A stretch of 64,000 nucleotides of DNA from Candidatus Rokuibacteriota bacterium (GCA_016200085.1 JACQFL010000028.1:26809-90808); one strand, 5' to 3'; counted from the first letter of the stretch, positions 26,501 to 42,780 are shown. The notes: a model not told the origin generated them from the letters alone. Program-made: numbers and translations.

Positions 26501-28334
26501 GACGCGCTCCGTCTATTACGCGACGTCATCGGAACGGTTGGCCCGTGACGTCCAGCGACTCCTCCTGAAGCTGGGGGTCGCCTCGACGATCCACACCAAA
26601 CGGTTTGCCTACCGGGGCGGCCGGCGGACCGGCTACACCGTCAACGTCCTGGGTGGTCGGACGGCCTACGTTCGACTGGAGATGCTGATCGGTCCGCACC
26701 TCGTGGGCGTGAAGCAGCGCACTCTGACTGCGCTGGCGACGTCCTATGTCGGGTCTTCGATGGTAATGGCGCGTGGAGCCGTGGACGTCATACCGGCCTC
26801 GCTGTGCCGTGATGCCGTGCGGGAGGCCATCGCCAAGGGCTACCCGACCCTGAAGACGGGATGCCGAGCGCTCGGGATCTCGTACCGGCTTCTCTTCGCG
26901 GACACGCGCAAACGGGGCATCCGCCGCGACACCCTGTTGTACCTGGCCGAACGCCTCGACGCGCCCGCGATCGAAGCTCTGCTCGCTCCGCCCACCACCT
27001 GGTCGCGACCTCGTGGATTCACGCTCGAGCGCAGTGAGCCCACCTATGACATCGAGGTGCCCGGCGCCAGGAGCTTCATCGCCAACGGCATCGCCGTCCA
27101 CAACTCGCACGCGGCGGCCTACGCGCTGGTGGCGTACCAGACGGCGTACTTCAAGGCGAACTATTCGACGGAGTTCATGGCCGCGCTCCTCACCTCGGAG
27201 ATGGGCGACACCGACAAGATCGTGAAGTACGTCGACGAGTGCCGCGTCATGGGCATCGCGGTGCAGCCGCCCGACGTCAACGCCTCGGGGGTGCGCTTCA
27301 CCGTCGACGGCGCGGCCATCCGCTTCGGGCTGGCCGCCATCAAGAACGTCGGCGAGTCGGCCATGGAGTCCATCCTCAAGACGCGCGCCGAGCAGGGACC
27401 GTTCACCACGCTGAACGACTTCTGCGCCCGGGTCGACCTCCGTCTCGTCAACCGCCGGGTGATCGAGAGCCTGATCAAGGCCGGCGCCTTCGACTCCCTC
27501 GGGCTGACGCGCGCGCACCTGCTGATCACGTGCGACGCGGCGCTGGACAGCGGCCAGCGCGTGCAGCGCGAGCGCGCTGAGGGGCAGGCCTCGTTCTTCG
27601 ACCTGCTCCCGGCGCCCACGGCGGCGCCGGCGGCGGAGCCGAGCGAGCCGGTGATGGCGGAGTGGGAGGTGGACCAGCGGCTGGCCTTCGAGAAGGAGGT
27701 CCTCGGGTTCTACGTCTCCGGCCACCCGCTCGCGCGCTACCGGCCCATGGTCGAGTCGCTCGGGATCACGCCCACCTCCGAGCTGGCGGGCAAGAGCCCG
27801 GGCGCGCGCGTGCTCCTGTTCGGCCAGGTCGCGACCCTGAAGGAGACCTCGACGAAGAGCGGCAACCGCATGGCCTTCGTCACCCTCGAGGACATGGAGG
27901 GCACCGTGGAGGTCACGGTGTTCCCGGAGCCGTTCAAGGCGGCCGCGGAGCACCTGCGCGGGCGCGAGCCGCTGCTCGTGCGCGGCCGCGTCGACGACGG
28001 GGACAAGGGTCGCGCCATCCTCGCCGAGGACGTCCGGCTGCTCGCCCAGGCGCTCGAGCAGCGCGCCGAGCGCGGCGGCGCCGTCGAGGCGAGCGCGCTC
28101 CGGATCCGGGTGACCGCCGGCGGCGATCCGCGGGACGCGGTCGCCCGGCTGCGGGAGGCCTGCGGCCAGCACCCGGGACGCGTGGCGGTCTTCGTCCACG
28201 TGCTCCTCCCGGACCACGAGGTCGTCGTGCGCGCGCGGGGCGTCGCCGTGGACGCCGGCGGGGAGCTCCTCACCAAGCTGGAGGCGCTGCTGGGACCGGG
28301 GGCCGCCACCATCGACTATGCCGGACGGGCTTGA
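23595..28334 (+). CDS. dnaE: DNA polymerase III alpha subunit, intein-containing
   Basis: [36 protein letters not shown]|intein|SHAAAY. Confidence 0.97.
25842..27104 (+). mobile_element. Intein (421 aa) with LAGLIDADG homing endonuclease, in dnaE
   Basis: Begins CLSGDA after YGFNK; block B TPDHPVFT; [10 protein letters not shown] and [10 protein letters not shown] motifs; ends [10 protein letters not shown] followed by Ser; more A/T-ending codons than the exteins. Confidence 0.95.
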
Positions 28335-29280
28335 CTTCGAGCAGCCGCTCCTCGAGCTCGAGGCGAAGCTCGCGGAGCTGCGCGCCGATGCCGACGGCGC
28401 CGCCGACGAGATCGTGCGCACCGAGGAGCGTCTCGATCGGCTGCGCCGGCGGGTCTTCGCGGGCCTGACGGCCTGGCAGCGCACCCAGCTCGCCCGCCAC
28501 CCGAAGCGGCCGCACACCGCGGACCTCGTCAAGCTGCTGTTCGAGGATTTCCTCGAGCTCCACGGCGATCGCGTCTTCGGCGACGACCAGGCCATCGTGG
28601 GTGGTCTGGCGCGCTTCGAGGGCCGCAGCGTGGTGGTCGTCGGCCATCAGAAGGGGCGAGAGACGCGCGAGAAGATCGCGCGGCACTTCGGCATGCCGCA
28701 TCCCGAGGGCTACCGCAAGGCCCTCCGGCTCATGGAGATGGCCGACCGGTTCGGCAAGCCGCTGGTCACGTTCATCGACACCCCGGGCGCCTACCCCGGC
28801 ATCGGCGCCGAGGAGCGGGGCCAGGCCGCAGCCATCGCCCGCAACCTGCGCGTCATGTCGTCGCTGCGCATCCCGGTGATCGCGATGGTCACGGGCGAGG
28901 GGGGCAGCGGCGGCGCGCTCGCCATCGGGGTGGCCAACCGCGTGCTGATGCTCGAGTACGCGGTCTACTCCGTGATCACGCCCGAGGGCTGCGCGGCGAT
29001 CCTGTGGAACGACGCGGGCAAGGCGCCGGAGGCGGCGGAGATCATGCGCATCACTCCGCCCGATCTCCTGCGGCTGGGCGTCATCGACACGATCGTGGCC
29101 GAGCCGCCGGGCGGCGCCCACCGGGACTGGGAGGCGACCGCCGCCAGCGTCCGTTCCGCCCTCCGCCTCGCGCTCGACGCGCTCGCCCAGCTCTCGCCCC
29201 ACACCCTCGTCCGCGAGCGTTACGAAAAATTCCGTCGCATCGGCGCCTGGGAAGAAGAAGCCGCGCCCCGCCCGCGCTGA
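28318..29280 (+). CDS. accA: Acetyl-CoA carboxylase carboxyltransferase alpha
   Basis: [42 protein letters not shown]. Confidence 0.97.
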
Positions 29281-29313
29281 CGACGTCGCGCGGCTCGATA
29301 CTCGACCTCGACG

Positions 29314-29468
29314 CGGCGGGGGGCGGGGTCACGGGCCGGGGCTCTCAGCGATCCGTGGAGTACGGGCTGACCTCGGCGGGCGCTCGAACCGTCACGCGGC
29401 GTCACACCATCGAGACCACAGTCAGTCGGATCGAGGAGAGCCCCGGCCCGTGACCCCGTCCCCCGCCG
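29314..29468 (+). repeat. Arm-core-arm element copy A (42-bp inverted arms, 71-nt core)
   Basis: Arms 29314..29355 / 29427..29468 pair at 39/42; CGAGACCACAGTCAGTCGGATCG (29411..29433) is identical in copy B. Confidence 0.85.
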
Positions 29469-29484
29469 GGACGACGCGCGCTAC

Positions 29485-30474
29485 CTAGTCCTTGAGGAGG
29501 GCGTCGGCCACGTCCTCGTCGGTGACGAGGACGTTGAGGCAGTGGGCGTGGATCGCGCCACGCACGGCCTCGATCTTGGAGCGGCCGCCGGCGACCCCGA
29601 TCACGAAGCGATCGTCGCGGCGGGAGAGGGCCTGCAGCCGGTCGTAGCCCACCGCGAGCATCCGCCGCATGAGGATCCGGAGCTCGGGGCGATCGACGAT
29701 CCGCCCTTCGCCGTCGAAGGGCTGGTAGTTGATCTCGCCCACGACGCCGAGCTGGCGCAGCCGCTTCACGCTGACCCCGTAGGCCTCGGCGAGCGAGCAG
29801 AAGCCCGGGGTCTGCTCGGCGATCTGGCCGATCCCGAGGAGCGCGACGTCCACCGACTGCGCGGCGTCGTAGATCTTCCGGACTTCCGGATCGCGCAGCA
29901 GGCGCCGCCGCTCGCGCTCGATCTGGGTGAGCGACACGAGGTGCTGCACGGGCAGCGCATAGGCCGTGACGTGAGGCCGGTACTTCGCCGCCATCATCCC
30001 GACCAGGGTGTTGGGTGAGAGGTCGACCAGCTTCAGCGTGCTCTCGCCGGAGAGGGGATAAAGCGCGAGGTCGCGCAGCCGGCGCTCGTGCAGGGCGCGG
30101 ATGGTCTGGTACAGGGTGAAGCCGCAGGAGAGCCCGATGCGCATGCCGTTGGCCGCGACTTTCTCGAAGTAGGCCGCCGCGGCCACCCCCAGGGCCTCCC
30201 GCACGTCGCCACGACCGCCGGCGGCGATGACGACGGCGTCGCGCAGCCCGTGCCGCTGGACCAGACGGCTCTCCAGCTCCTGGGTGCGCGGCAGGTCGAG
30301 CTCCACGCGTACGAGCCCCTCGTCCATGGCGCGCTTGAGCAGGCGGGACACGGTGGCCGCCGAGAGCCCCACGGCGCGCGCGATGTCCTTCTGGCTCTGG
30401 CCGTGGCGGTAGTAGAGGTCCAGGCACTGGACCATCTGGCGAAGCTCGCCGGGGCGGCGAGAAATTAATTTCAC
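29485..30474 (-). CDS. SorC/DeoR-type sugar-binding transcriptional regulator (CggR-like)
   Basis: LYYRHGQSQKDIARAVGLSAATVSRLL HTH; IGLSCGFTL, ALLGIG, GVAGGRSK, VLVTDE; start GTG inferred. Confidence 0.9.
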   Translation of the reverse strand: MKLISRRPGELRQMVQCLDLYYRHGQSQKDIARAVGLSAATVSRLLKRAMDEGLVRVELDLPRTQELESRLVQRHGLRDAVVIAAGGRGDVREALGVAAAAYFEKVAANGMRIGLSCGFTLYQTIRALHERRLRDLALYPLSGESTLKLVDLSPNTLVGMMAAKYRPHVTAYALPVQHLVSLTQIERERRRLLRDPEVRKIYDAAQSVDVALLGIGQIAEQTPGFCSLAEAYGVSVKRLRQLGVVGEINYQPFDGEGRIVDRPELRILMRRMLAVGYDRLQALSRRDDRFVIGVAGGRSKIEAVRGAIHAHCLNVLVTDEDVADALLKD

Positions 30475-30521
30475 GTTCGTAAAGTTCTTGCTTGACGGGT
30501 CCAGTGTACGCCTCGTATGCT
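30461..30521 (+). promoter_or_regulatory. fbp promoter and adjacent AT-rich palindrome
   Basis: TTGACG (30492)-18 nt-TATGCT (30516); perfect palindrome GAAATTAATTTC at 30461..30472. Confidence 0.55.
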
Positions 30522-30575
30522 CCGGACCAAGGAAAATTCTCGAGCCCGTCACCCCAGAACCGCAAGGAGGCCGGC

Positions 30576-32072
30576 ATGGGAGACAAGCGCTACGGACCCC
30601 CCAAGGGGTCCACCGGGATGTCCGACTACCACCAGTCCCGGGACGAGCTGGCGGGGCTGCCCCAGACCGTCGCCGAGAAGATCCCGGTCACCAACACTCC
30701 GAACATCTTCTCCTACAAGTCCTACGTGTTCGCCAAGAACCCCGCGCTGGTGCAGCGCTACATCAAGGCCACCAAGGCCGACGTTGGCGGCGTGGGCGGG
30801 CATGTGGTCGCCGCCGAAGAGGTGAAGTCGATCATCGCCAAGTTCGTGATGGACAACAACGGCTACAACGGCGAGCCGATCTTCACCTCGCTGATCGTCA
30901 CCCACACCGGCGACGACGTCGCGGTGACGGGCATCATGGCGGAGTCGGTCGACATGAGCGTGGTCGACGAGCTGATGTGGGACGCCCTCAACGAGGGCGC
31001 GCGCAAGGCGGCCGAGCTCGGGCTCTACGGCCCGGGTCAGGACCTCGTGGCCGACGCCTTCACGGGCAACCTGCGCGGGACGGGGCCGGCCACCGTGGCC
31101 CTCGCGCTGCCCGTGCGCAAGGACAACGCCTCCCAGACCGTGCTCGTGTCCTACGCCGACAAGACCGAGCCCATGGCCTTCAACTACTACGCCACCGGCG
31201 CGTACCTGCTGCCGCGGTTCAACACCGGGCTGGTCATCGCCGCCTCGAAGATGAAGCGCGGCTACATCTTCGACGTCGTCGACCTGGACACCAAGGCGCA
31301 GGCCATCGAGGCGGGCGCGCACCCGCGCGATCAGAAGGCGCTGGACGGCAAGATGGAGGAGCTGGCCAAGGGATTACAGGAAAAGGTCATCTCGCTGCGC
31401 GGCCCCGAGGACCTCTACGACATCGAGGGGCTCTGCCGCTCCTCCCGCTTCGTCATCGCCCGCATCTGGAGCCGCAACGACAATGGCGAGCGCGATTCCC
31501 TCGGCTACATCTGCTCGGCCGAGCGGCTGCACAACATCAAGACCAAGAAGGGCTTCACCTACGGCGGCAAGGACGACCCGGTGCTGCTGGCCTTCGCCCA
31601 GGGCGACTGGCCGGCGCCGGGCGAGATCACCTCGCCGTGGGCGGCGGCGCCGATGGTGGCGGGCGATTGCCGCGGCAGCCACAACCTGCACATCCTGCCC
31701 ATGCCCATCAACTCCCAGACCTCGTACTGGTCGGGCCCGATCATCTCGGCGGTCACGCTGTCCTGCAACATCCACACGGGCCGGATCGGCGCCATCTCCG
31801 ACCAGTTCGCGCTCGGCACGCCGTGGGACGTGGTGCGCCAGCAGGCCGCGCAGCTCGCCATCCAGTTCCGCAACGCGCACGGCATCAAGCAGCCCGCGAC
31901 CCTGCACGAGGACGAGCTCGAGTACCAGGAGGGCTGGAAGGAGCGTCGCGCGCGCCTCGAGCAGTCCTTCGAGTTCCGCCCGGCCTTCACGCTGGGCAAC
32001 GGCGACGGCCACAGCGTCAACGGCGGGGCGAAGCCCGCCGCGGTCGGCGCGGGCAAGAGCGAGACCGACTGA
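30576..32072 (+). CDS. fbp: Fructose-1,6-bisphosphate aldolase/phosphatase (class V FBPase), long divergent variant
   Basis: KADVGGVGGH, GDDV, LYGPGQDL..DAFTGN.RG.GP, DKTEPMAFN, RLHNI, YGGKDDP, RGSH, ELEY; AAGGAGG RBS. Confidence 0.88.
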   Translation: MGDKRYGPPKGSTGMSDYHQSRDELAGLPQTVAEKIPVTNTPNIFSYKSYVFAKNPALVQRYIKATKADVGGVGGHVVAAEEVKSIIAKFVMDNNGYNGEPIFTSLIVTHTGDDVAVTGIMAESVDMSVVDELMWDALNEGARKAAELGLYGPGQDLVADAFTGNLRGTGPATVALALPVRKDNASQTVLVSYADKTEPMAFNYYATGAYLLPRFNTGLVIAASKMKRGYIFDVVDLDTKAQAIEAGAHPRDQKALDGKMEELAKGLQEKVISLRGPEDLYDIEGLCRSSRFVIARIWSRNDNGERDSLGYICSAERLHNIKTKKGFTYGGKDDPVLLAFAQGDWPAPGEITSPWAAAPMVAGDCRGSHNLHILPMPINSQTSYWSGPIISAVTLSCNIHTGRIGAISDQFALGTPWDVVRQQAAQLAIQFRNAHGIKQPATLHEDELEYQEGWKERRARLEQSFEFRPAFTLGNGDGHSVNGGAKPAAVGAGKSETD

Positions 32073-32135
32073 TCGACGCCGGGGCCTCATGGCCCCGACG
32101 GCGATCAGGCGATCAACGGGCGACTGGATTACCGC

Positions 32136-32165
32136 GTAGGAGGGGGCCGCGCGGCCCCCTCCTAC
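32136..32165. repeat. Perfect 30-bp palindrome (REP-like/terminator)
   Basis: gtaggagggggccgc|gcggccccctcctac downstream of fbp. Confidence 0.8.
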
Positions 32166-32347
32166 ACCTGCCCCGCACCTGTTCCGCCGCGATTGGTGAT
32201 CGAGGGGCGCCCGGGGTCCTCCTGCGCCTCCCCCCGCATATCTCCCTCCTCGATTGCTCATCAACGGGGCCGGTGATGTCGCGGCTGGTTTGACTTCATT
32301 TATCGTGGGTGCTACGGTCGGTCGAAGGTAAACGCGCGGAAAGATTG

Positions 32348-33688
32348 ATGGCGAAGCTGCATCTCATCACCTACGGCTGTCAGATGAACGAGTACGACTC
32401 CGAGCGGGTCGCCGGCTTGCTCAAGTCGCGGCAGTACGACCTCACCGAGGACGAGAGCGATGCCGACCTCATCCTGCTCAACACCTGCGCCATCCGCGAG
32501 AAGGCCGAGGACAAGGTGTTCTCCAGGCTCGGCCAGCTGCGCGCGCTCAAGCAGCGCCGGCCCGACGTCGTCATCGGCGTGATGGGCTGCATGGCGCAGC
32601 TGCACCAGGCGGAGATCCAGCGCCGCGCCCCCATCGTCGACCTCGTCTTCGGCTCGCCGGCCATTGCCCGGGTGGGCGAGCTGGTCGAGGCGGTGCGCCA
32701 GGGACGCCGGCGGATCCTCGACACCGGCGAGGCGCCGCTGGTCAAGATCACCGCGCGGCCGGCCTCGGCGTCGCGGCTCAAGGCGTACGTGACGGTGATG
32801 GAGGGGTGCGAGAAGCACTGCACGTTCTGCGTCGTGCCCACCACGCGCGGCCGCGAGCGCAGCCATGCGCCCGCGACGATCCTCGACGAGATCCGCGGCC
32901 TCGTCGCCGAGGGGTGCCGCGAGGTGACCCTGCTGGGCCAGACCGTCAACGCGTACGGGCGCGACCTCACCCCGCCGACCGACCTCGCGGTGCTGTTCGC
33001 CCAGGTCGACGCGATCGAGGGCCTTGCGCGCATCCGCTTCACGACGTCCAACCCCTACAACCTGACCGCCCGGCTCATCGCCGCCATCCGCGACGTCCCC
33101 AAGGTCTGCGAGTACTTCCATCTCCCCCTCCAGTCGGGCTCTGACCGCGTGCTCGCGGCCATGAACCGCGGCTACACGCGCGGCGAGTACCTGCGCCTCG
33201 TGGACGCCCTCCGCGAGGCGGTGCCGGACATCGCGCTGTCCACCGACGTCATCGTCGGCTTCCCGGGCGAGACGGAGGAGGACTTCCGGGCGACGCTCGA
33301 GGCCGCGGCCGCGGTCGGCTACGACAACGCCTTCGTGTTCCGGTACTCGCCCCGGCCCGGCACTCCGGCGGCGGCGATGCCCGGGCAGATCGCCCCCGAG
33401 GTCAAGGCCGAGCGCAACGCCCGCCTGCTCGAGGTCACCCGGCGCAGTGCGGCCGCGCGAAGCGACCGGCTCGCGGGACGCACCGTCGAGGTCCTGGTCG
33501 ACGGCGCCTCGCGCAAGAGCGCCCGCGAGCTGTCGGGCCGAACGCGCTGCAACCGCGTGGTGAACTTCGACGGGCAGGGGAGGGTCGCCCCCGGCGACCT
33601 GGTCCACGCCGTCATCGACGAGGTCCTGCCGCACAGCCTGCGCGGACACCTCGCGCCATCGGAGGAGGCCGTATGTTCGTGGAGATGA
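32348..33688 (+). CDS. miaB: tRNA ms2i6A37 methylthiotransferase
   Basis: TYGCQMNEYDS, NTCAIREKAE, CEKHCTFC, LLGQTVNAY, TRAM domain. Confidence 0.96.
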   Translation: MAKLHLITYGCQMNEYDSERVAGLLKSRQYDLTEDESDADLILLNTCAIREKAEDKVFSRLGQLRALKQRRPDVVIGVMGCMAQLHQAEIQRRAPIVDLVFGSPAIARVGELVEAVRQGRRRILDTGEAPLVKITARPASASRLKAYVTVMEGCEKHCTFCVVPTTRGRERSHAPATILDEIRGLVAEGCREVTLLGQTVNAYGRDLTPPTDLAVLFAQVDAIEGLARIRFTTSNPYNLTARLIAAIRDVPKVCEYFHLPLQSGSDRVLAAMNRGYTRGEYLRLVDALREAVPDIALSTDVIVGFPGETEEDFRATLEAAAAVGYDNAFVFRYSPRPGTPAAAMPGQIAPEVKAERNARLLEVTRRSAAARSDRLAGRTVEVLVDGASRKSARELSGRTRCNRVVNFDGQGRVAPGDLVHAVIDEVLPHSLRGHLAPSEEAVCSWR

Positions 33689-34185
33689 AGGTGCGAGGGC
33701 TCGCGCTGGACCCGCTGTCGAACATGCCGATCATCATCCTGCGCGACGAGGAGGACAAGCGGTCGCTGCCGATCTGGGTCGGCATCTTCGAGGCCAACGC
33801 CATCGCGCTGGAGCTGGAGAAGATCGCCACCCCGCGGCCCATGACGCACGACCTCATCAAGAACATCATCGAGACCATCGACGCCAAGCTCGTCAAGGTC
33901 GTGGTGACGGACCTGCGCGAGAACACGTTCTACGCCGTCCTCCACCTGCAGGTCGGCGAGACCGAGTACACCGTCGACTCGCGCCCCTCCGACGCCATCG
34001 CGCTGGCCCTGCGGGTCACCGCGCCGATCTTCGTCGACGAGGACGTGGTGCGCCGGGCCAAGAGCCTCGACGACAGTACGAAGGACGCCGAGTCCATCAA
34101 GGCCGCCGAGCCCATCAAGGCCGACGACCCTGAGCGCCTCAAGGAGTGGCTGGAGAACATCAAACCGGAAGACTTCAAGGCGTAG
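33673..34185 (+). CDS. Bifunctional nuclease family protein (DUF151)
   Basis: LPIWVGIFEANAI, RPMTHDL, DSRPSDAIALAL. Confidence 0.93.
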   Translation: MFVEMKVRGLALDPLSNMPIIILRDEEDKRSLPIWVGIFEANAIALELEKIATPRPMTHDLIKNIIETIDAKLVKVVVTDLRENTFYAVLHLQVGETEYTVDSRPSDAIALALRVTAPIFVDEDVVRRAKSLDDSTKDAESIKAAEPIKADDPERLKEWLENIKPEDFKA

Positions 34186-34194
34186 CCGCCGCCG

Positions 34195-35349
34195 GTGCGC
34201 GTCGCCCTCTTCACGAACAACTACCTGCCGTTCTGCGGCGGGGTCACCGTCTCGGTGGAGACCCTGCGCCGGGGGCTCGAGGCCTGCGGCCACGAGGCCT
34301 GGGTGTTCGCGCCGCGCTTCCCTGGCGCGCCCGACGACCCCGCCCGGGTCGTCCGCTATCCCTCGCTGCCCGCGCCGACGTACCCCGAGTTCTCGCTCGC
34401 GGTGCCCTTCTCGCGGCGCATTGGCCGGCTGGCGCGCGCCCTGGACTTCGACGTGATCCACGCGCATCACCCGTTCTTGCTCGGACCGGCCGCGCGACGG
34501 CTGGCCCGCGCGGCGGGGCGGCCGATCGTCTTCACCTACCACACCCGCTACGACAAGTACGCGCACTACGTGCCCCTGCGCCGCGGCGTGGTCGAGGCCG
34601 CCGCCGTGCAGCTGAGCACGCGCTTCGCGGCCCGCGCCGACGCCGTGGTCGCGCCCTCCGCCGTGTTGCGCCACGAGCTGCGCGCGCGGGGTGTGCGGGT
34701 GCCCATCGCGGTCGTGCCGACGGGCGTCGACCTCGATCGCTTCCGGCCGGGCGAGGTCGGCGCCGCCCGCGAGGGCCTCGGCCTGCCGGCCGGCGAGCCG
34801 GTGGTGCTGTACGTGGGCCGCCTCGACCGCGAGAAGAGCGTCGACCGCGTGCTCGCCGCCTTCGAGCGGATCGCGGGCACCGTGCCCGCGGCGCGCCTGG
34901 TGCTGGTCGGCCACGGCACCCAGGCGGCGCGGCTCCGGGAGACGGCGGGCCGGCTCGCCACCAGCCGGCGCATCGTCTTCATGGGTGTGCAGCCACACGA
35001 TGCGCTGCCGCGGTACTACCGGACGGCCGACGTGTTCCTGTTCGCCTCCGAGACCGAGACCCAGGGACTGGTGCTGGCGGAGGCGGCGGCGTGCGGCGTG
35101 CCCGCGGTGGCGGCCACCGCGCCGGGCAGCGACGAGGTCGTGCGCGACGGCGAGACCGGCCTGCTGACCAAGGGCGATCCCACCGCGCTCGCCGAGGCCG
35201 CCATCGGGCTGCTGCTCGACACCAACCGCCGGCGGGCGATGGGGGAGCGGGCGCGGGCGGTGGCGGAGCAGGAGTTCGGGGTCGGATTGCAGATCGAGCG
35301 CACGCTGGCGGTGTACGCCGAGGCCGCCGCGCGCCTCGGCCCGAGGTGA
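34195..35349 (+). CDS. Glycosyltransferase family 4
   Basis: FTNNYLP..GGV, HAHHPF, YVGRLDREK, ETQGLVLAEA. Confidence 0.93.
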   Translation: MRVALFTNNYLPFCGGVTVSVETLRRGLEACGHEAWVFAPRFPGAPDDPARVVRYPSLPAPTYPEFSLAVPFSRRIGRLARALDFDVIHAHHPFLLGPAARRLARAAGRPIVFTYHTRYDKYAHYVPLRRGVVEAAAVQLSTRFAARADAVVAPSAVLRHELRARGVRVPIAVVPTGVDLDRFRPGEVGAAREGLGLPAGEPVVLYVGRLDREKSVDRVLAAFERIAGTVPAARLVLVGHGTQAARLRETAGRLATSRRIVFMGVQPHDALPRYYRTADVFLFASETETQGLVLAEAAACGVPAVAATAPGSDEVVRDGETGLLTKGDPTALAEAAIGLLLDTNRRRAMGERARAVAEQEFGVGLQIERTLAVYAEAAARLGPR

Positions 35350-35606
35350 CGGACCGCACGGACGCCCGCCGCGTCATCCGCGTCGCGTGCCGCGGCGCCT
35401 GGGCGCTGCCGGAGGGCAAGGGGCTGCTCGACGGCGACGCGCGGGTGCGCACGCTGCGGCGTGTGCTCGTGACCTACCCCGGCGTCCGCTACATCCTGCC
35501 CGATCGGATCGGGCTCCACGCGGGCGCCGAGGACCGCCTGCTCGAGACCCTGTCCACTCTCCTGACGCGCCAGCACTGGCTCGTCGAGACCGTGAGCGTC
35601 GAGTGA
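35346..35606 (+). CDS. Hypothetical protein (86 aa)
   Basis: GTGA overlap with the upstream gene; fills the operon gap. Confidence 0.7.
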   Translation: MTDRTDARRVIRVACRGAWALPEGKGLLDGDARVRTLRRVLVTYPGVRYILPDRIGLHAGAEDRLLETLSTLLTRQHWLVETVSVE

Positions 35607-35619
35607 GCGCGCCCAGCCC

Positions 35620-35949
35620 ATGAGCGGCCCGATGCGCCAGCGCCAGCAGGCGCTCGACCGGGTGAACGAGGAGATCGCGCGGGAGAAGGCGGCCTCGCTC
35701 GGCCGCGCCGGCGAGCGGCTGGAGGACGCCCTGGCGGAGGTCGCCGCGCTGGCCGCGCGGGTCGGCGCGGCGGCCGACGCCGCCGAGCGCGCGCGTCTGG
35801 TCGCGCAGCACGAGGCGGCGCGGGTGCGCGCGGCGCAGCGGCGCCTGGCCCTCATCATCCAGCGCGAGGCCATGGGCCTGCGGAGCCATCGCGTGCTCGA
35901 CCAGCAGTTTCCCGAGCCGCGCCGTCTCGCCGGCGAGGCGGGCGCGTGA
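35620..35949 (+). CDS. Hypothetical helical protein (DUF6665-like)
   Basis: EKAASLGRAGERLE...IIQREAMGLR pattern; GTGA coupling to paaK. Confidence 0.65.
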   Translation: MSGPMRQRQQALDRVNEEIAREKAASLGRAGERLEDALAEVAALAARVGAAADAAERARLVAQHEAARVRAAQRRLALIIQREAMGLRSHRVLDQQFPEPRRLAGEAGA

Positions 35950-37238
35950 TCTGGAACCCCGCCGCCGAGTGCATGACGCGCGCCGAGCGCGAGGCGCTGC
36001 AGCTCGCGCGGCTGCGCGAGACCGCGGCGTGGGCGGCGGCGCGCGTGCCGTTCTACCGCGGCCTCGCCGGCGCCCGCCTGGCGAGCCTCGACGACCTGCC
36101 CGCGCTGCCCTTCACGCGCAAGACGGACCTGCGCGAGCAGTATCCCTTCGGCCTGTTCGCGGTGCCGCAGGCCGAGGTCGCACGCGTGCACGCCTCGTCG
36201 GGCACCAAGGGCAAGCCGACCGTCGTGGGCTACACCGCCGCCGACCTCGACGTCTGGCGCGAGGTGATGGCGCGCGCGATGACCGCCGCCGGCGCCCGCC
36301 GCGGCGATCCGCTGCAGGTCGCCTTCGGCTACGGGCTCTTCACGGGCGGGCTCGGTTTCCACGACGGCGCGGAGCGGATCGGCATGACGGTGGTGCCGAC
36401 GTCCTCCGGCAACACCGCGCGCCAGTGCCTGCTCCTGCGCGACTTGCGCCCCGCCGGGCTCTGCGCGACGCCGTCCTTCGCGCTCCACATCGCCGAGACC
36501 CTGGCCGACCAGGGGACCGCGCCCGCCGACCTCGGCCTGCGCTACGGCATGTACGGCGCCGAGCCGTGGACCGAGGGCATGCGACGGGCGCTGGAGCAGG
36601 GCCTCGGCTGCCCCGCGTTCGACGTCTACGGGCTGTCCGAGGTCACGGGCCCCGGCGTCTCGGGCGAGTGCGAGGCGCGCGACGGCCTGCACCTCGCCGA
36701 CGACCACTTCCTGCCGGAGATCATCGACCCGGCCACCGGCGAGGTGCTGCCGCCCGGGCGCGAGGGCGAGCTGGTCTTGACGACGCTGTCCAGGCGCGCC
36801 ATGCCCGTCGTCCGCTACCGGACGGGCGACCTCACCGCGCTCACCTTCGAGCCCTGCCGGTGCGGCCGCACGAGCGCACGAATGGCGCGCATCAAGGGCC
36901 GCTCCGACGATATGCTGATCATCAAGGGCGTGAACGTGTACCCGTCGGAGGTGGAGGCCGCGCTGCTGGACGTCGAGGAGCTGGTGCCGCACTACCAGCT
37001 CGTCGTCGACCGCCGGGAGACGCTGGCGCGGCTGGAGATCCAGGTCGAGCCCTCGGCGGCGTTGCTGGGGCGGACCGGGGAGTCGCTGGCGGGGCATCCC
37101 GCGACCGAGGCGCTGCGCCAGCGCGTGGCGGCCCGGCTGCGGACGGCGCTCGGGCTGGGGGTCGAGGTCACGCTGGTGGCCCCCCGGACCATCCCGAGGT
37201 CCGAAGGCAAGGCCGTGCGGGTCATCGAGCGGAGCTGA
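35946..37238 (+). CDS. paaK: Phenylacetate-CoA ligase
   Basis: HASSGTKGKPT, FGYGLFTGGLGFH, GAEPW, YGLSE, RYRTGD, GRSDDM. Confidence 0.93.
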   Translation: MIWNPAAECMTRAEREALQLARLRETAAWAAARVPFYRGLAGARLASLDDLPALPFTRKTDLREQYPFGLFAVPQAEVARVHASSGTKGKPTVVGYTAADLDVWREVMARAMTAAGARRGDPLQVAFGYGLFTGGLGFHDGAERIGMTVVPTSSGNTARQCLLLRDLRPAGLCATPSFALHIAETLADQGTAPADLGLRYGMYGAEPWTEGMRRALEQGLGCPAFDVYGLSEVTGPGVSGECEARDGLHLADDHFLPEIIDPATGEVLPPGREGELVLTTLSRRAMPVVRYRTGDLTALTFEPCRCGRTSARMARIKGRSDDMLIIKGVNVYPSEVEAALLDVEELVPHYQLVVDRRETLARLEIQVEPSAALLGRTGESLAGHPATEALRQRVAARLRTALGLGVEVTLVAPRTIPRSEGKAVRVIERS

Positions 37239-37259
37239 GCTTCAGGAGGGCCGTGAGCC

Positions 37260-38081
37260 ATGACGAGCCAAGTCACTGACATGATGGACAAGATCTCCCG
37301 CGGCGCCCGCCTCGAGTCGGCCGAGGAGATGACGGCCGAGTACCGGGACGACCTCGTGCACCTGATGACGATGCAGGCCGACTCCGAGCTGGCCGGGGGC
37401 TACGGCTACGTGGCCTGGATCACCAAGGCGCCCACGGTCGAGGAGAAGCACGTCGTCGCCCAGATCGTGAAGGACGAGCTCCGCCACGCCACGGTGATGT
37501 ACGGCCTGCTCGCCGACCTCGGGGTGGACGTCGATCGTCACGTGCGCGAGCACGACGAGACCTTCACCATGCGCATCGGCGCCGACGCCGACATCGGCAC
37601 CGCGCGCATCACGAGTGACAAGCGGGTCAACATCTTCTATTACCCGATCGACACCTGGACCGATTTCGTGTTCTTCAATTTCTGCATGGACCGCGGCGCC
37701 GGCCATCAGCTCGAGGACGTGCGACAGTGCTCCTACGGCCCCTGGGCGCGCACGATCGAGGGGATCTTCAAGGAGGAGAAGTTCCACATCCGCCACGGCG
37801 AGTACTGGGTCAAGCGTCTCGCCGAGGATCCGGCCACCCACGACGAGGCCCAGCGGACCTTCGAGCGCTGGTACATCCGCACCATGAACATCTTCGGCCG
37901 CCCGGGCTCGCCGAGGAACCAGCGCTACCGCCGCTTCCGCCTCAAGAGCCGCGACAACGACGTGGTCCGCCAGGCCTTCGCCACCGAGATCGCCGGGCTG
38001 TGCGAGAAGTTCGGGCTCACGGTGCCGCAGTGGAAGCCGCGCTGGGACCGGCTCCCCGAAGAAGGCCAGATCCCCGGATAG
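37260..38081 (+). CDS. paaA: Phenylacetyl-CoA epoxidase subunit A-like di-iron protein
   Basis: QADSE, WITKAPT, DELRH, SYGPW, EEKFH di-iron pattern. Confidence 0.8.
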   Translation: MTSQVTDMMDKISRGARLESAEEMTAEYRDDLVHLMTMQADSELAGGYGYVAWITKAPTVEEKHVVAQIVKDELRHATVMYGLLADLGVDVDRHVREHDETFTMRIGADADIGTARITSDKRVNIFYYPIDTWTDFVFFNFCMDRGAGHQLEDVRQCSYGPWARTIEGIFKEEKFHIRHGEYWVKRLAEDPATHDEAQRTFERWYIRTMNIFGRPGSPRNQRYRRFRLKSRDNDVVRQAFATEIAGLCEKFGLTVPQWKPRWDRLPEEGQIPG

Positions 38082-38086
38082 GTCGT

Positions 38087-38110
38087 GCTGGGGGGCTCCG
38101 GGCGCCCCCC
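38087..38110 (+). repeat. REP-like hairpin, identical to 54573..54596 on the opposite strand
   Basis: gctggggggctccgggcgcccccc matches the reverse complement at 24/24. Confidence 0.75.
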
Positions 38111-38150
38111 GGACCCCCCCCACGCTCCCCAGTGTTCGATCTCTGGTCAG

Positions 38151-39515
38151 TTACACCAGGGCCCAGACGTCCGAGGGGCGGCGGGGGAAGAGCGCGTTGA
38201 GCAGCGCGCGCGCTTCCTGATCGCGCACGACGCAGTCGGGAAACGCGTGCTCGAGCTCCTCGACGCTGCGGAAGCCGAACAGGAGCTGCAGCACGCTGAG
38301 CCCGGGAAAGAGCGCCGACGGCCGCCGCGGGTCCTTCGAGGGCGCGCCGGACTCCTGGCCCAGGACGTCGCGCGCCGGCGCCCAGGGCGCGACCTTGACC
38401 ATCCGTCCGCCCTCGAGGACCAGCTGAACCCCGCCGCGATCCCACGCCAGGCGCAATTCGCCGCTGTGGCCGGTGAGCGGGGAGTCCGCCAGGTGCCGCT
38501 CGAGCGCCGGCCTCACCGTCGTGAGCAGCGCCGCGACGTCGGGCGCGCGCAGGTACCACCACGACGGCCGCGGCGTGCCCGGCGCCTTGTAGATGCGCTC
38601 GAGGGGATGCCCGGGCGCGATGAACCAGAAGCTGGCCGCCTGGCCGAACGGCCGCGCGTGGCGCGCGGCGTAGGCCTCGCCGGTGGCGCGCAGATACGCG
38701 AGCACGTCGGGCCAGACCGCGCGCCACGACACGCCGTCGATCACCTCGAGCTCGCCGACCGCCACCGCCGTGTTCCAGAGCACGGGCAGGTGCACGAGCA
38801 TCCCCACCGGGCGAGCGGCTGGCGTCTCGATCACGCAGAAGGCGAGCGACTGGGCGCTGCCCGCCGACCGCTCCCCGAGGTCGTAGCGCCAGACGCGCTC
38901 GTCGTGCGGCGCGGTGACGAGATAGCGCGCCCGCGACGCCGTGTGCGTCGCAGCGAGGAACCCGGCGTCGTCCGCGCGCGCGGGCCGGATACGGAAGGGA
39001 CCCGTGCCCGGCGCGGGGAGTTCGAGGTCGCCGAGGGGCACCCAGGGGCCGCCACCGCGCGCCAGCGCAGGCTCGTAGCCGAACTGGCGGTAGAAGACCG
39101 GGATGCCGGCGATCGCGAGGAGCTGGTGGCCCCGCGCCGCGGCCTCGGCGTGGATCGCCTCGAAGACGGCGCGCACCAGCCCGCGGCCCCGGTAGGCCGC
39201 GAGCGTGCCCACGAGCTCGGGCTGGCCAACCGAGACCAGCACGCCGCCGTACGTCCAGGTCTGCGAGATCAGGATCGTCGACGCCACGAGGGCGCCGCTC
39301 GCTCGATCTTCCACGAGCACGGCGTCCTGGGCACGCACGCGGTGGTGACGCCCGCCGAGCAGATCCTGCGTCCAGCGCCCGAAGATCTCGGCCGGCTCCT
39401 GGGAGTCCTGGAAGCGGAGGACGTCGGCGGTGAAGGTGACCAGGCGCTCGACGTCTGCCAGGGTCGCCGTGCGGAGCACGAGGCCGCCACCGAGGTCCCT
39501 GGGTAAAGTTGACAT
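38151..39515 (-). CDS. GNAT family acetyltransferase (Eis-like architecture)
   Basis: PELVGTLAAYRGRGLVR, GIPVFYRQFGY. Confidence 0.85.
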   Translation of the reverse strand: MSTLPRDLGGGLVLRTATLADVERLVTFTADVLRFQDSQEPAEIFGRWTQDLLGGRHHRVRAQDAVLVEDRASGALVASTILISQTWTYGGVLVSVGQPELVGTLAAYRGRGLVRAVFEAIHAEAAARGHQLLAIAGIPVFYRQFGYEPALARGGGPWVPLGDLELPAPGTGPFRIRPARADDAGFLAATHTASRARYLVTAPHDERVWRYDLGERSAGSAQSLAFCVIETPAARPVGMLVHLPVLWNTAVAVGELEVIDGVSWRAVWPDVLAYLRATGEAYAARHARPFGQAASFWFIAPGHPLERIYKAPGTPRPSWWYLRAPDVAALLTTVRPALERHLADSPLTGHSGELRLAWDRGGVQLVLEGGRMVKVAPWAPARDVLGQESGAPSKDPRRPSALFPGLSVLQLLFGFRSVEELEHAFPDCVVRDQEARALLNALFPRRPSDVWALV

Positions 39516-39558
39516 AATCCCTCTTATCGGAAGTACCAAGAAGCCGGAGGGCGCGGCC

Positions 39559-40197
39559 CTACGACGCGGCGCCGAGCGTGGCCAGCCGGCCGCGGACGTC
39601 CCCGGCGCGCGGACTGCCCGGACGCTCCTTGAGCAGGCGCTGGTAGGTCGCGATCGCCCGGTCCTTCTGGCCGGCCATCTCCTGGGAGCGGCCGAGGTCG
39701 ATCAGAAGCTGCTCGTAGTAGAAGTCGCTGGGCTTGAGCCCGGCGAGCGCCGCCCGATAGGCCTCGCCCGCACGCGTGAAGTTCCGCTCGGCCTCCCACG
39801 TGTAGGCGATCCCCGCCTGGGCCAGGGTGCGCAGGGTGCCCTGCGCGCCCTTCGCCAGGGCGATCCGGTAGGCGCCGCGAGCGGCCTCCCACTGGCGGGC
39901 GTCGGAGCGCGCGTTGCCCAGCTCGCAGGCGGCCTGCCCGGCGCGCCGCGAGCCGGGATACCGCGCGAGGAAGCCTTCGAGCGCTCCCGCGACCGCCGCG
40001 CGGGCGGCGGGCGGCGCGTCGGGGGCGCGGGCCGTGGTCATCACCGTCATCACCTCGGCGTAGGCCTCGAGGGCGCGCCGCTCCTGGAGCGTGGACCAGA
40101 GCCAGAGCCCGGCGCCGGCGGCCACGACCACGGCCAGACCGGTCGCGATCCAGGCGGCGGTCCGCCACGAGATGTCCGGCCAGCTCACGCGGCGCAT
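39559..40197 (-). CDS. Membrane-anchored TPR protein (YfgM-like)
   Basis: N-terminal TM followed by TPR-like helices. Confidence 0.8.
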   Translation of the reverse strand: MRRVSWPDISWRTAAWIATGLAVVVAAGAGLWLWSTLQERRALEAYAEVMTVMTTARAPDAPPAARAAVAGALEGFLARYPGSRRAGQAACELGNARSDARQWEAARGAYRIALAKGAQGTLRTLAQAGIAYTWEAERNFTRAGEAYRAALAGLKPSDFYYEQLLIDLGRSQEMAGQKDRAIATYQRLLKERPGSPRAGDVRGRLATLGAAS

Positions 40198-40230
40198 CGA
40201 AGTCTCAGGCTCCCGGGTTGACGACGAGCA

Positions 40231-40416
40231 TCAGCGCACGCGCAGGCCCCGCCGGTACTGGCGGCCGCACGCCACGCAGCGGCGCCAGCCGCGCCAAGCG
40301 CGGCGCACGAGGTGGCCACAATGGGGGCAGCGCTGGTAGGACCGGCACCCGTAAAACAGGCCGATGCCCGCGGCCACGGCCACGCCGACGAGCCACGCCG
40401 AGGGTACGACTTCCAC
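40231..40416 (-). CDS. Small membrane-anchored zinc-ribbon protein
   Basis: TM + CPHC...CVAC; promoter directly upstream. Confidence 0.7.
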   Translation of the reverse strand: MEVVPSAWLVGVAVAAGIGLFYGCRSYQRCPHCGHLVRRAWRGWRRCVACGRQYRRGLRVR

Positions 40417-40422
40417 CTGTGC

Positions 40423-40451
40423 ATGCTAGGCAGCGCTCGACACCCTGTCAA
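40423..40451 (-). promoter_or_regulatory. Sigma70 promoter predicting a leaderless mRNA
   Basis: TTGACA (40451..40446)-17 nt-TAGCAT, then 6 nt, then GTG at 40416. Confidence 0.7.
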
Positions 40452-40466
40452 GAATGCCCCTGATCG

Positions 40467-40766
40467 TCAGCGTTCCAGATAGAGATCCTCGCCCTCCACG
40501 ATCACGGGCCAGCAGGCCAGCTTGACCGCCGGATTGTTGACGTTGGCGCCGGTCGTCACGTCCCAGCGCCAGGCATGCCAGGGGCAGATGACCACGCGGC
40601 CCTCGAGATCGCCGTCCCCGAGCGGGCCGCCCCGATGGGGACACGTGTTGTCGATCGCGTAGAAGCGCCCCTCCACGTTGAAGAGCGCCACCGAGCCCTC
40701 GCCGGCCTCGATGACGCGGCCTTCACCCTCCGGCACGTCACTCACCGCCCCCAGCCTGATCCGCAT
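40467..40766 (-). CDS. Rieske [2Fe-2S] ferredoxin (NirD-like)
   Basis: CPHRGGPL...CPWHAW. Confidence 0.93.
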   Translation of the reverse strand: MRIRLGAVSDVPEGEGRVIEAGEGSVALFNVEGRFYAIDNTCPHRGGPLGDGDLEGRVVICPWHAWRWDVTTGANVNNPAVKLACWPVIVEGEDLYLER

Positions 40767-40877
40767 GGGTTCCCTCCCGCCCGTCATATCGACGGGTTGA
40801 CCCGCCTCTGTCAAGACGTCACCCGAATGGCCCCCGTCGTGGCAAGGACTCTGAGCCCGGGCGCGCGTCGGCTCGAC

Positions 40878-41024
40878 GGCGGGGCAGGCTGAGGGCGGGA
40901 GGGCTTCCGCGATCCGACTGACTGTGGTCTCGTAGGCCGTGTCCGCGCGCCGCGTGGCGGGCGCGGCGAGACCATCCCTACCCAACGGATCGCGGAAGCC
41001 CTCCCGCCCTCAGCCCGCCCCGCC
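40878..41024 (-). repeat. Arm-core-arm element copy B (39-bp arms, 69-nt core)
   Basis: Arms 40878..40916 / 40986..41024 pair at 38/39; core 61/69 identical to copy C. Confidence 0.9.
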
Positions 41025-41179
41025 TCGCTCGGCGTCCACCAGTCACGCGACGCTCGAGACGCCAGACCGATCCCGAACCTCTTCCCCCAAGGCGCTGGGG
41101 TTCCTTGGGAAGAATGAAACCTTTCCGCGTCGGTGCCGCGCCGATCGGTCTTCGCGGTTTGCCCCTCGTGAACCTCGCG

Positions 41180-41315
41180 CTCCGCGGGGCCGGGCCGGGG
41201 GGCCGCGATCCGTTCGGTACGGGTCGTCTCGCCGCGCGCGTCACGCGGCGCGCGGACACGACCTACGAGACCACAGTCGGTCGGATCGCGGCCCCCCCGG
41301 CCCGGCCCCGCGGAG
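41180..41315 (+). repeat. Arm-core-arm element copy C (33-bp arms, 69-nt core)
   Basis: Arms 41180..41212 / 41282..41315 are perfect apart from one bulged C. Confidence 0.9.
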
Positions 41316-41382
41316 AATCGGGGTTCCGCGCGCAGGGAGAAGCGCGGATAATGGGCAGGGTGGTCAGACGCGGAGGGCGGGG

Positions 41383-42756
41383 ATGATTTTTCAACAGCTG
41401 CTGAACGAGGAATCGGGGTGCCTGTCGTACCTGATCGGCTGCGGGCAGGCCGGCGAGGCCGTGGTCGTCGATCCCGGGCGCGATCGGGTCGACGAGTACA
41501 TCCGCCTCGCGCGCAAGAAGGGGCTGACGATCTCGCGCATCGTCGAGACCCACACCCACGCCGATCACATCTCCGGCAACCGCGACCTCGCCGCGGCCAC
41601 GCGTGCGCCGATCTTCCTGCACCGGGCCGCCCAGGCCGCCTTCGAGCACGAGACGCTGGCCGACGGTGACATGATCCGCCTCGGCACCGTCGACCTCGAG
41701 ATCCTGCACACGCCCGGCCACACGGCCGACAGCCTCTGCCTGCTCGTCACCGATCGCTCGCGGGGCGAGGTGCCGTGGTTCGTGCTCACCGGTGACACCC
41801 TGTTCATCGGCGACGTCGGCCGGCCCGACTTCGGCGGTGCGCAGGCGGCGGCCTCGATGTGGGACAGCCTGCGGCAGGCGCTCCTGCCCCTCGACGACAG
41901 CGTCGAGGTCTACCCGGGCCACGGCTCGGGGTCGCTCTGCGGGCGCGCGATGTCGGCGAAGTCGGCCTCGACCATCGGCTTCGAGCGGCGCTTCAACCCC
42001 GCCCTGCAGGCGCGGAGCCGCGAGGAGTTCGTCGAGCGCCTCATGACGGGGCTGCCGCCCAAGCCACCGTCCTTCGAGACCATCGTCGCCAAGAACCGCG
42101 GCCTCATCCCGCTGCAGGCGAGCAAGCCGCGCCCGCTGTCCGCGCGCGAGACCCAGGACCTGCTCGCCCGCGGAGCCTGCGTCCTCGATCTCCGCGACCC
42201 GGGGAGCTTCGGCGAGGGCCACGTTCCGGGCGCGGTCAACGTCTGGATCGAGAGCCCGCAGTTCGCCGATCGCGCGGGCTGGCTCGCGCCCCCCGGCGCC
42301 GAGCTGATCCTCGTCGCGCAGGGGCCGTCCGATCTCGATCGCGCGCTCGCCGGGCTGGCCCGGGTCGGCGTGGACCAGGTCGTCGGCCACGTGCAGCACG
42401 GGATGGTCGGCTGGCGGAACGACGGCCTGCCCGTCGCCGCGGTGCCCCAGCTGTCCGTCTACGAGCTGGGCGAGTGGCTGGCCGAGGGACGTGACGTGCA
42501 GATCGTCGACGTGCGCGAGCCGTCGGAGTGGCGCGAGGGCCACGTGCCCGACGCGCTGCACGTGCCCATGCTGGAGGCGCTCGCGCGCCGCGCCGAGCTC
42601 GCTCCCGACCGTCCGAAGGCGGTGCTGTGCGCGGGCGGGCTCAGGTCGAGCGCGGTCATCAGCGTGCTCGCGCGCGCGGGCATGCACGGCTTCTACAACG
42701 TCACCGGCGGCATGGCCGCCTGGCAGAAGGCGGGCCTCCCGGTCGAGCGATCGTAG
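41383..42756 (+). CDS. Persulfide dioxygenase-like MBL hydrolase fused to two rhodanese domains (CstB-like)
   Basis: ETHTHADH, TPGHT, TGDTLFIGDVGRPD, GSLCG; C-terminal rhodanese CAGGLRS. Confidence 0.88.
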   Translation: MIFQQLLNEESGCLSYLIGCGQAGEAVVVDPGRDRVDEYIRLARKKGLTISRIVETHTHADHISGNRDLAAATRAPIFLHRAAQAAFEHETLADGDMIRLGTVDLEILHTPGHTADSLCLLVTDRSRGEVPWFVLTGDTLFIGDVGRPDFGGAQAAASMWDSLRQALLPLDDSVEVYPGHGSGSLCGRAMSAKSASTIGFERRFNPALQARSREEFVERLMTGLPPKPPSFETIVAKNRGLIPLQASKPRPLSARETQDLLARGACVLDLRDPGSFGEGHVPGAVNVWIESPQFADRAGWLAPPGAELILVAQGPSDLDRALAGLARVGVDQVVGHVQHGMVGWRNDGLPVAAVPQLSVYELGEWLAEGRDVQIVDVREPSEWREGHVPDALHVPMLEALARRAELAPDRPKAVLCAGGLRSSAVISVLARAGMHGFYNVTGGMAAWQKAGLPVERS

Positions 42757-42780
42757 AGCCGGGGGCTCCTCGAGTCTGCG

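Follow-up and report, generated by a model that had tools for sequence, protein, structure and literature searches.

What is the sequence that occurs three times in a 64,000-nucleotide stretch of DNA from Candidatus Rokuibacteriota bacterium (GCA_016200085.1 JACQFL010000028.1:26809-90808; the whole stretch is called the window here), each time as a core set between long inverted arms? Is it an RNA gene, a mobile element or a signal that serves the ends of genes? An initial annotation had proposed either a structured RNA released from a processing stem or a non-autonomous mobile element. The comparisons described here favour, on balance, a family of mobile DNA repeats, restricted to one lineage, non-autonomous and able to fold into hairpins ('foldback'), that resemble hairpin-forming doublets of repetitive extragenic palindromes (REPINs; single units, REPs) and miniature inverted repeat transposable elements (MITEs). 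On reading the sequence, each copy was found where it had first been placed:

29308..29474, plus strand: copy A, whole hairpin; 5' arm 29308-29352, core 29353-29429, 3' arm 29430-29474
40874..41028, minus strand: copy B, subfamily sf1; core 40914-40988, flanking arms of 39 and 40 nt
41029..41179, no strand: spacer between the head-to-head copies B and C, with a CCAAGG/CCTTGG palindrome and an AT-richer patch
41180..41315, plus strand: copy C, subfamily sf1; core 41210-41284, arms 41180-41209 and 41285-41315

The arms of each copy pair with their own partner, as had been noted, at 40/45 positions in copy A, 38/40 in copy B and 30/31 plus one G6/C7 bulge in copy C (the last read by eye). The likeness first seen between the cores of B and C holds at a measured 89% identity; their arms are unrelated. 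The strings said to be common to A and B or C are present in the sequence, and the core of A combines an sf2-type start (CCGTGGAGTAC) with an sf1-type end. The spacer between B and C has no counterpart in the other copies. Folded as RNA, the window copies reach -106 to -132 kcal/mol on either strand, with z scores of -8.5 to -12.5 against dinucleotide shuffles (A, -111 kcal/mol and z -9.3; B, -132 and -12.3; C, -118 and -9.1), and none of 200 shuffles folded as well. The order 'G-rich arm first', which had been noted for each copy, says nothing about the strand of the core: on the bottom strand, the top strand's 3' arm comes first, as its reverse complement, and any inverted repeat therefore shows this order on both strands. 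A protein-coding reading was rejected: an open reading frame (ORF) at 41105-41386 crosses copy C, but arm lengths and core insertions or deletions shift the frame between copies.

How large is the family? The genome of the window (G000; 3.57 Mb in 57 contigs, 71% G+C, 94.6% complete) yielded 37 loci in a blastn search with the three window copies. A covariance model (R1), built from the alignment of these 37 copies (core plus 15 nt on each side) and used at E values up to 0.01, gave 59 matches in the genome, three of them in the window: C51:56146-56252 for copy A, C51:67707-67811 for copy B (106.9 bits) and C51:68003-68107 for copy C (91.3 bits). The family is thus much larger than the three copies of the window. 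The copies are extragenic and are spread over many contigs. Each unit consists of a non-palindromic core of 73-81 nt, an inner stem of one of a few types, and long arms, with G runs in the arm on one side and C runs in that on the other; in some copies a more degenerate outer inverted repeat lies beyond the arms. Three subfamilies (sf1, sf2 and sf3) share the core start CCGT(T/G)G(G/A)GTA, and the same few types of inner stem recur in all three. The sf1 core has three conserved blocks, CCGTTGGGTACGGG, ACGCGGCGCGCGGACACG in the middle and CACAGTCAGTCGG at the end; the sf2 core starts with CCGTGGAGTA, has GATGCGAGCGCGC in the middle and ends as in sf1; sf3 has GAGCGAACGCGAGCAC in the middle and GCCTACGCGGTCCGG at the end.

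The family is narrowly distributed. The genus of the window is represented in the collection by a single species, with no other genome, and relatives were scanned as a first sample of 40 and then as 150 further genomes of the same taxonomic family. Outside G000 there are six copies in genome G049 (genus g43) and single weak matches in G022 (in the first sample), G141 and G084; 147 of the 150 further genomes have no match to the model. Exact-pattern scans for the core ends, which may leave out records of the window's own genome, gave one stretch in the genome collection, an armless one in coding-like DNA of a Gemmatimonadota metagenome-assembled genome (MAG), and two armless, low-GC stretches in the metagenome collection; all are attributed to chance. 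The sequencing runs that contain the DNA are groundwater metagenomes only. In the literature searched for Rokubacteria, no description of such repeats was found.

Two copies, at C18:67427 and C3:579, have a 137-nt 3' flank in common at 99% identity, and one of the two is at the start of a contig; either the segment was duplicated or a single locus entered the assembly twice. In a comparison of the 45-220 nt flanks, homology between copies was confined to shared spacers, tandem copies and a few weak matches.

Are the arms part of the element, or of the target? For three loci, the counterparts were sought in other genera of the taxonomic family, whose genes are 72-83% identical in DNA (two unpublished genomes, G009 and G023, entered solely into these tallies of empty sites). 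At the site of copy A, about 0-20 nt separate the two convergent genes in nine relatives, by arithmetic on alignments; read directly in two relatives, the site has 9 nt and 2 nt between the genes and the hairpin is absent. A head-to-head pair on contig C12 corresponds to 558 nt in G000 versus 0-24 nt in at least ten relatives, and in the one relative where the site was read it consists of TAG, 10 nt and CTA, with a 10-nt palindrome and no long hairpin. The B/C region has about 530-550 nt extra, compared with relatives that have a divergent intergenic space of about 50-110 nt. The six G049 copies adjoin genes whose counterparts are elsewhere in G000, that is, they are at non-orthologous sites, and the site of one G049 copy (L058) is empty in G000, where its two flanking genes abut. 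Since the sites read in relatives have no comparable hairpin and the closest copies share their arms (see below), the unit, arms included, is an insertion whose arms belong to the element and not to the target. Of the earlier proposals, that of a non-autonomous mobile element is thereby strengthened, whole elements being absent from the same sites in other genera and the G049 copies being at non-orthologous sites. The associated idea, that insertion creates or targets inverted flanks, fares poorly, as relatives' sites hold 9 nt, 2 nt or a 10-nt palindrome; so does the possibility that the arms are terminators or REPs already present at empty orthologous sites, there being no long hairpin in the three relatives' sites read.

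Of 58 copies, 44 have a strict local alignment of the arms that extends as far as the core, and the arm statistics are drawn from these. The arms have a median length of 37 bp and an identity of 97%; over 1597 paired positions, 28 mismatches are transversions and 18 are transitions, with 16 insertions or deletions. A G-U mismatch in copies A and B had been thought to favour pairing in one particular strand; family-wide, the G-U falls on the core-sense strand for 13 transition mismatches and on the opposite strand for 5, which is not significant (p = 0.10). In the five pairs of copies with a core identity of at least 0.90, the arms are 0.74-0.94 identical, except for one arm that is cut off in a tandem copy. 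At a core identity of 0.80-0.85, arm identity is 0.64 against a shuffled-arm null of 0.61, and outside the closest pairs it stays at the null (0.61-0.64), so that conserved ends of the REP kind are absent. Because the closest pairs still have similar arms, it appears that the arms move together with the core and diverge later.

How do arms that differ between copies remain paired? In four of the G049 copies, 15 of 24 variable arm columns have at least two states that are each seen on both arms. Between two of the G049 copies (L056 and L060; alignment read by eye) all four arm differences are mirrored, three of them transversions. In sf2, a G run of five versus four is matched by C5 versus C4 on the opposite arm. 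The arms drift at about the rate of unconstrained positions, yet they are almost perfectly paired, and selection for pairing alone seems too slow to keep them so. A tandem (2x2) mismatch is found repeatedly at positions 5-6 of the stem, namely in sf2, copy A and the G049 copies, and could serve as a recognition mark. Changes that are paired on both arms provide a natural data set for the upkeep of perfect palindromes.

The cores behave differently. In the alignment of the 23 sf1 copies, conservation reaches 90% or more in 44 of 78 core columns (mean pair identity 0.94), versus 19 variable columns at 0.39, which represents saturation. The most similar pair of cores is 96% identical and most pairs are 60-85% identical. 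The family is old, and its conserved blocks are kept while the rest of the element drifts. Are the blocks parts of a folded RNA? The RNAalifold consensus of the 37 copies has the outer stem only, where 16 of 18 pairs show compensatory changes. Of the 13 pairs with compensatory change in the sf1 alignment, 11 are among the 13 outermost, and the remainder are in a 2-bp inner helix and are due to one sequence each; the other nine pairs, including a GC-rich inner stem, have no compensatory change. Nested stems described earlier within the core therefore lack covariation support, inner pairs being invariant or changed in single sequences. Because the conserved blocks are not helices, the core is kept as sequence and not as folded RNA; a protein, or a partner that base-pairs in trans, may be what recognises it.

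Where do the copies lie? Genes were called with a crude caller of our own (ORFs of 90 codons or more whose third-position G+C exceeds 0.85). By these calls, 22 of the 59 copies lie between convergent genes, 29 between tandem genes and only one between divergent genes, the caller having missed B/C. The unit sits 0-50 nt past the stop codon of a gene. It is polar as well: 42 gene 3' ends come within 120 nt of a model match, of which 35 face the core-3' end (the 'anti' arrangement) and seven the core-5' end (p 1.5e-5); three of the seven belong to genes on the far side of a single copy that lies between convergent genes. The hairpin base follows the stop codon by 20 nt or less in 24 of 48 cases, 22 of them 'anti'. 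There are eight head-to-head pairs, most with a convergent gene on each side that has its own copy in the same relative polarity; no tail-to-tail pair was seen among the model-match coordinates. Most of the head-to-head pairs are explained by the polarity rule, the core-3' end facing the gene. Direction of replication does not account for the polarity, because the members of a pair are opposite within 300 bp. On the gene-distal side, CCGCGAGGT(T/C) often follows directly after the hairpin. The hairpins were also considered as intrinsic terminators and rejected: in 58 copies no U tract follows in either sense, with 1.16 T per 10 nt in the core sense and 1.41 in the reverse, versus 1.44 in the genome.

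The adjacent stop codon is TAG in 26 of 40 cases, versus 659 of 2395 called genes genome-wide (27.5%; p 8.5e-7). By our own count, the base ahead of the adjacent TAG is G in 13 cases and C in 10. Where checked, the TAG is ancestral, being present in the SorC-type gene beside copy A in three relatives without the element and in the C12 gene in one. In sf2, the outer degenerate inverted repeat (TAGTGTCCTGAGTC...) ends exactly in the neighbour's TAG at all four gene-adjacent ends; two of four copies have TAG/CTA at both ends, which is compatible with a TA duplication, although the inverted repeat already includes these bases. If TA or TAG were the preferred target, the position past stop codons would be explained, since TA and TAG are rare outside stops in DNA of 71% G+C; the polarity would not. 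The polarity towards the abutting gene end and the bias to TAG stops are new here.

The window copies show both the usual and an atypical arrangement, and their neighbours are as follows:

28318..29280, plus strand: accA-like gene (acetyl-CoA carboxylase carboxyltransferase alpha); Pfam PF03255, E 1.8e-139
29485..30552, minus strand: SorC-type sugar-binding regulator gene; Pfam PF04198
40467..40860, minus strand: Rieske [2Fe-2S] ferredoxin gene; Pfam PF00355 at residues 77-159 of the ORF 40470-40985 (minus strand), and codon-position GC
41383..42756, plus strand: metallo-beta-lactamase and rhodanese gene; Pfam PF00753 and PF00581, frame from codon-position GC

Copy A is situated between the convergent accA-like and SorC-type genes. 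The TGA stop of the former is 33 nt ahead of the hairpin base, and the TAG stop of the latter is 16 nt from the hairpin base on the core-3' side, the usual 'anti' arrangement. Copies B and C are atypical in that they lie between two divergent gene starts, each core-3' end facing a gene. The start of the Rieske ferredoxin gene faces copy B and is not fixed (about 40800-40860), and the metallo-beta-lactamase/rhodanese gene begins 68 nt past copy C. The promoters of these two genes would have to be in the short stretches beside B and C or in the inserted DNA.

The site of copy A has a history in other genomes too. In genus g38 a different long hairpin, with 35-bp arms and an unrelated core, is at the accA/sorC site (L041 1347-1497, genome G075), and the sister genome G044 (L040 1340-1490) has remnants of the same different hairpin. 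This intergenic site is a repeated landing place.

How might a foldback mobile repeat have produced this pattern? The conserved blocks, with the recurrent 2x2 mismatch 5-6 bp from the core, would be the recognition site of a trans-acting protein, none having been found in the assembly. The arms would need only to pair, and one might serve as the template of the other, which would keep them near-perfect: the copying could occur by template switching inside the hairpin at replication, or the second arm could be rebuilt at each copying event. Copying of this kind would make changes, G-run length included, appear on both arms together. In TA-poor DNA of 71% G+C, stop codons would be the main TA or TAG targets, which could place the insertions after genes. 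The fixed polarity could be a product of the insertion machinery; alternatively, copies in the other orientation could have been selected against at gene ends.

A cognate enzyme was looked for at several levels. The earlier statement that the window has none stands: 0 of 40 scanned ORFs have a transposase, HUH or reverse transcriptase domain. In the neighbourhood of the four clustered copies on contig C196 of G049 there are ordinary metabolic genes, one Uma2-family nuclease and no transposase. No longer element carrying the sf2 ends was found. Two reverse transcriptase genes occur in G000; neither adjoins a hairpin copy, and G049 has none. MAGs often lose copies of insertion sequences (IS), so the absence of an enzyme is not established; the gene could be unassembled. 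IS110 elements often target palindromic repeats, and genes of this family are present in G000. The genes in question are:

C32:3175-3618, C12:98368-98820 and C37:13835-14269, G000: IS110-family (DEDD) transposase genes
C44:48955-49596 and C39:158368-158976 (L063, L064), G000: reverse transcriptase genes (~356 and 363 codons); the best PADLOC model is the generic reverse transcriptase model PDLC01136

The putative nuclease gene of the Uma2 family (PF05685) is at L061 1375-1938 on C196, about 170 nt from one copy.

Several findings weigh against a mobile origin. The families PF01797 (Y1/RAYT/IS200), PF13358 (IS630), PF07282 (TnpB) and PF01609 (IS4/5) have no matches in the 94.6%-complete G000, and PF01797 has none in G049, G141, G022 or G084, the control genomes having matched; the three IS110-type (PF01548) and three rve (PF00665) genes of G000 are not beside a copy. 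No direct repeat of at least 8 nt that would represent a target duplication rises above the null, and the outer ends of the element are defined for just 4-5 sf2 copies. Movement leaves no recent trace: the closest core pair is just 96% identical, and four groundwater DNA runs gave no joint that removes an element among those listed (the runs are from one study, two of them maybe from the source sample; contigs break inside or beside elements, and one contig bridges copy A). A symmetric TA target alone cannot yield the polarity, and a second hairpin family, described below, shares the post-stop position without the polarity (8 versus 6). Copies B and C occupy a divergent promoter region rather than gene ends. 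The positional counts depend on the crude gene caller, and a host function, too, could account for the polarity and for core blocks that stay conserved over the long term at each locus. No common outer terminal repeat is enriched over 158 long-hairpin ends beyond those of sf2.

Do known systems offer a precedent for a foldback repeat of this kind? The nearest are REPs, bacterial interspersed mosaic elements (BIMEs) and REPINs, which are mobilised by RAYT transposases (Y1 HUH enzymes); they are likewise extragenic and non-autonomous, occur in tens of copies and lie beside gene ends, as set out by Bertels and Rainey in 2011 (PMC3116915). The same paper describes long hairpins in single-stranded DNA or RNA, common compensatory changes and lasting persistence in one lineage, as well as clusters of alternating orientation and tandem arrays (PMC3116915), all of which are also features here. 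The layout differs: REPINs have, in that description, two highly conserved inverted REP 16-mers at their ends and a variable middle (PMC3116915), whereas the present family has a conserved central core of 73-81 nt and variable arms. A RAYT accompanies REPINs, and no Y1/RAYT gene is in G000 or in the four other matching genomes; the present family (family I) is also polar towards the neighbouring gene. Repeats of the REP/REPIN type are understood mainly in Proteobacteria and mainly via RAYT, and here an uncultured groundwater lineage has several families of hairpin repeats with the opposite layout, in which the centre is conserved and the arms drift.

TA-targeting MITEs of the IS630/Tc1-mariner type (Correia, RUP) are small non-coding foldback elements with terminal inverted repeats and an intergenic preference. 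The 4-5 sf2 copies with an outer repeat ending in TAG/CTA fit insertion at a TA within CTAG. The outer ends of family I, however, are not conserved family-wide, most of the hairpin being copy-specific; a TA duplication in sf2 would be indistinguishable from the inverted repeat, and no DDE_3 transposase was found.

Quasipalindrome correction by template switching and arm-to-arm gene conversion in large palindromes are general processes of repair and replication. Template switching fits the arms of family I, which are complementary despite change and show paired transversions and paired run-length changes; it leaves unexplained the conserved core, the copy number and the position after stops. 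The attC sites of integrons are imperfect inverted repeats of 60-140 bp that lie right after a stop in fixed orientation, conserve structure more than sequence and have unpaired recognition bases. Placement of the hairpin after a stop codon and the fixed orientation are alike here. Unlike attC sites, copies of family I are not in arrays, follow housekeeping genes such as accA and are conserved at the centre and not at the ends; R''/R' sites (RYYYAAC / GTTRRRY) are absent by reading alone, no attC-model or intI search having been made.

Could the repeats instead have been kept for the host? A module serving gene ends would be a cis-acting signal at the 3' end of the mRNA, such as a polar terminator, an exonuclease block or a site for RNase III or a protein, maintained by selection and not by mobility. 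The closeness of half of the hairpin bases to a stop codon, the polarity of 35 versus 7, the supply of one copy to each convergent gene in most head-to-head pairs, the persistence of core blocks where neutral columns are saturated and the great stability of the hairpins on both strands all agree with such a role. The missing U tract and the lack of a compensated helix in the core do not, nor does the commoner arm mismatch, which in the mRNA sense would be C-A and not G-U (13 versus 5). The 147 of 150 family genomes without a match have the same genes, and B and C are upstream of two divergent genes. This makes the host-serving module an unlikely account, though one to be taken seriously; correspondingly, that the copies are purely selfish has somewhat the better than even chance, and that they now serve gene ends is a possibility of the lesser kind. 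With no RAYT found, a strict polarity and a preference for TAG stops, the family suggests one of two things: small hairpin DNA that moves by a route not yet described, or repeats that have been taken into service as signals at gene ends.

A more specific version of the mobile repeat can also be imagined, and is doubtful. It would be a self-propagating, polar gene-end cassette, moved by an enzyme outside the tested transposase families, that lands in one orientation and no more than a few bases from TAG stops; its heritable template would be one arm plus the core, with the second arm made anew by snap-back synthesis whenever the element is copied. If this were true, arms would be free to drift while perfectly paired, and the other hairpin families of G000, alike in build but with different cores, would behave in the same way.

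Does the core represent a free-standing small RNA gene, a noncoding RNA of 70-90 nt cut from the long stem, with its own promoter on the core-5' side? A long perfect stem resembles an RNase III substrate, the motif (A/C)CTCGCGGCGG occurs on the core-5' side only, in six exact cases, and there is a weak excess of core-sense G-U. Nine of 59 copies have CCTTGG at a distance of 79-122 nt on the upstream side of the core, versus about 2.5 expected, by arithmetic from the genome rate; the sites are at 41066-41100 in the window and in the 5' flanks of eight other copies, and are mostly in head-to-head spacers. The G-U excess, though, is not significant, upstream regions are not homologous between copies, and in most copies transcription would continue, in antisense, through the end of the gene next door. 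The core has no conserved secondary structure. A scan of 28000-43000 against Rfam 15 (E up to 1) gave only miRNA-precursor models on copy B, scoring 35.6 and 27.9 bits where 72 and 84 are the gathering scores; these are chance matches to a hairpin and nothing at or near a gathering score. The structured RNA of the initial annotation, released from a processing stem, thus finds no support in core helices or Rfam, and a small RNA gene is very improbable.

The copies might also be sites at which a protein binds DNA, for chromosome organisation or as a BIME-like roadblock to replication or transcription, the hairpin or cruciform and the core blocks being bound. What is conserved is blocks of sequence and not structure, positions 5-6 of the stem repeatedly show a tandem mismatch in sf2 and the G049 copies, and the copies are extragenic and dispersed over many contigs. 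Nothing tested in the analysis speaks for a binding protein, however, almost all other genomes of the taxonomic family (147/150) lack a match, and the TAG bias is left unexplained, so this role too has very little to recommend it. That only the core moves, entering the loops of long GC-rich hairpins already present, is largely refuted and scarcely credible: 33 of 96 long inverted repeats are outside family I and have similar arms around different cores, the inner-stem types cross the subfamilies and the B and C cores are alike in unrelated arms, but relatives' sites have 2-10 nt between genes and no long hairpin, sf2 copies and G049 copies have arms as well as cores in common, and arm similarity declines with core divergence rather than being absent.

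Family I has company in the genome. The scan of G000 for long inverted repeats found 96, of which 63 overlap family I, and the 33 others include at least three further families with copy-specific G-run arms, each around its own conserved core. One of these, family II, has 14 copies, for example:

C2:86955-87112, G000: family II
C55:9182-9358, G000: family II
C57:83541-83717, G000: family II

Family II has inner arms GGCAGGGGTCAcCgGGACC and its own 79-nt core, whose end (ccGGTTGGGGTACG, then GGTCC) resembles the core start of family I. Its copies lie 14-46 nt past stop codons, which are TAG in 7 of 12. For annotation, the approximately 59 sites, each of 150-170 nt, are best masked as repeats and not called as ORFs or RNAs, and so are the additional sites of the sister families.

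Two other genes of the window deserve mention. The dnaE gene (DNA polymerase III alpha; 23595-28331, plus strand, 1579 codons) probably contains an intein, because a LAGLIDADG_3 homing-endonuclease domain is present at residues 955-1024. A gene of 2774 codons at 624-8945 (plus strand) encodes GH94 supersandwich and catalytic domains together with a glucoamylase-like domain, and its product looks like a cyclic beta-1,2-glucan synthase or an enzyme of the phosphorylase type.

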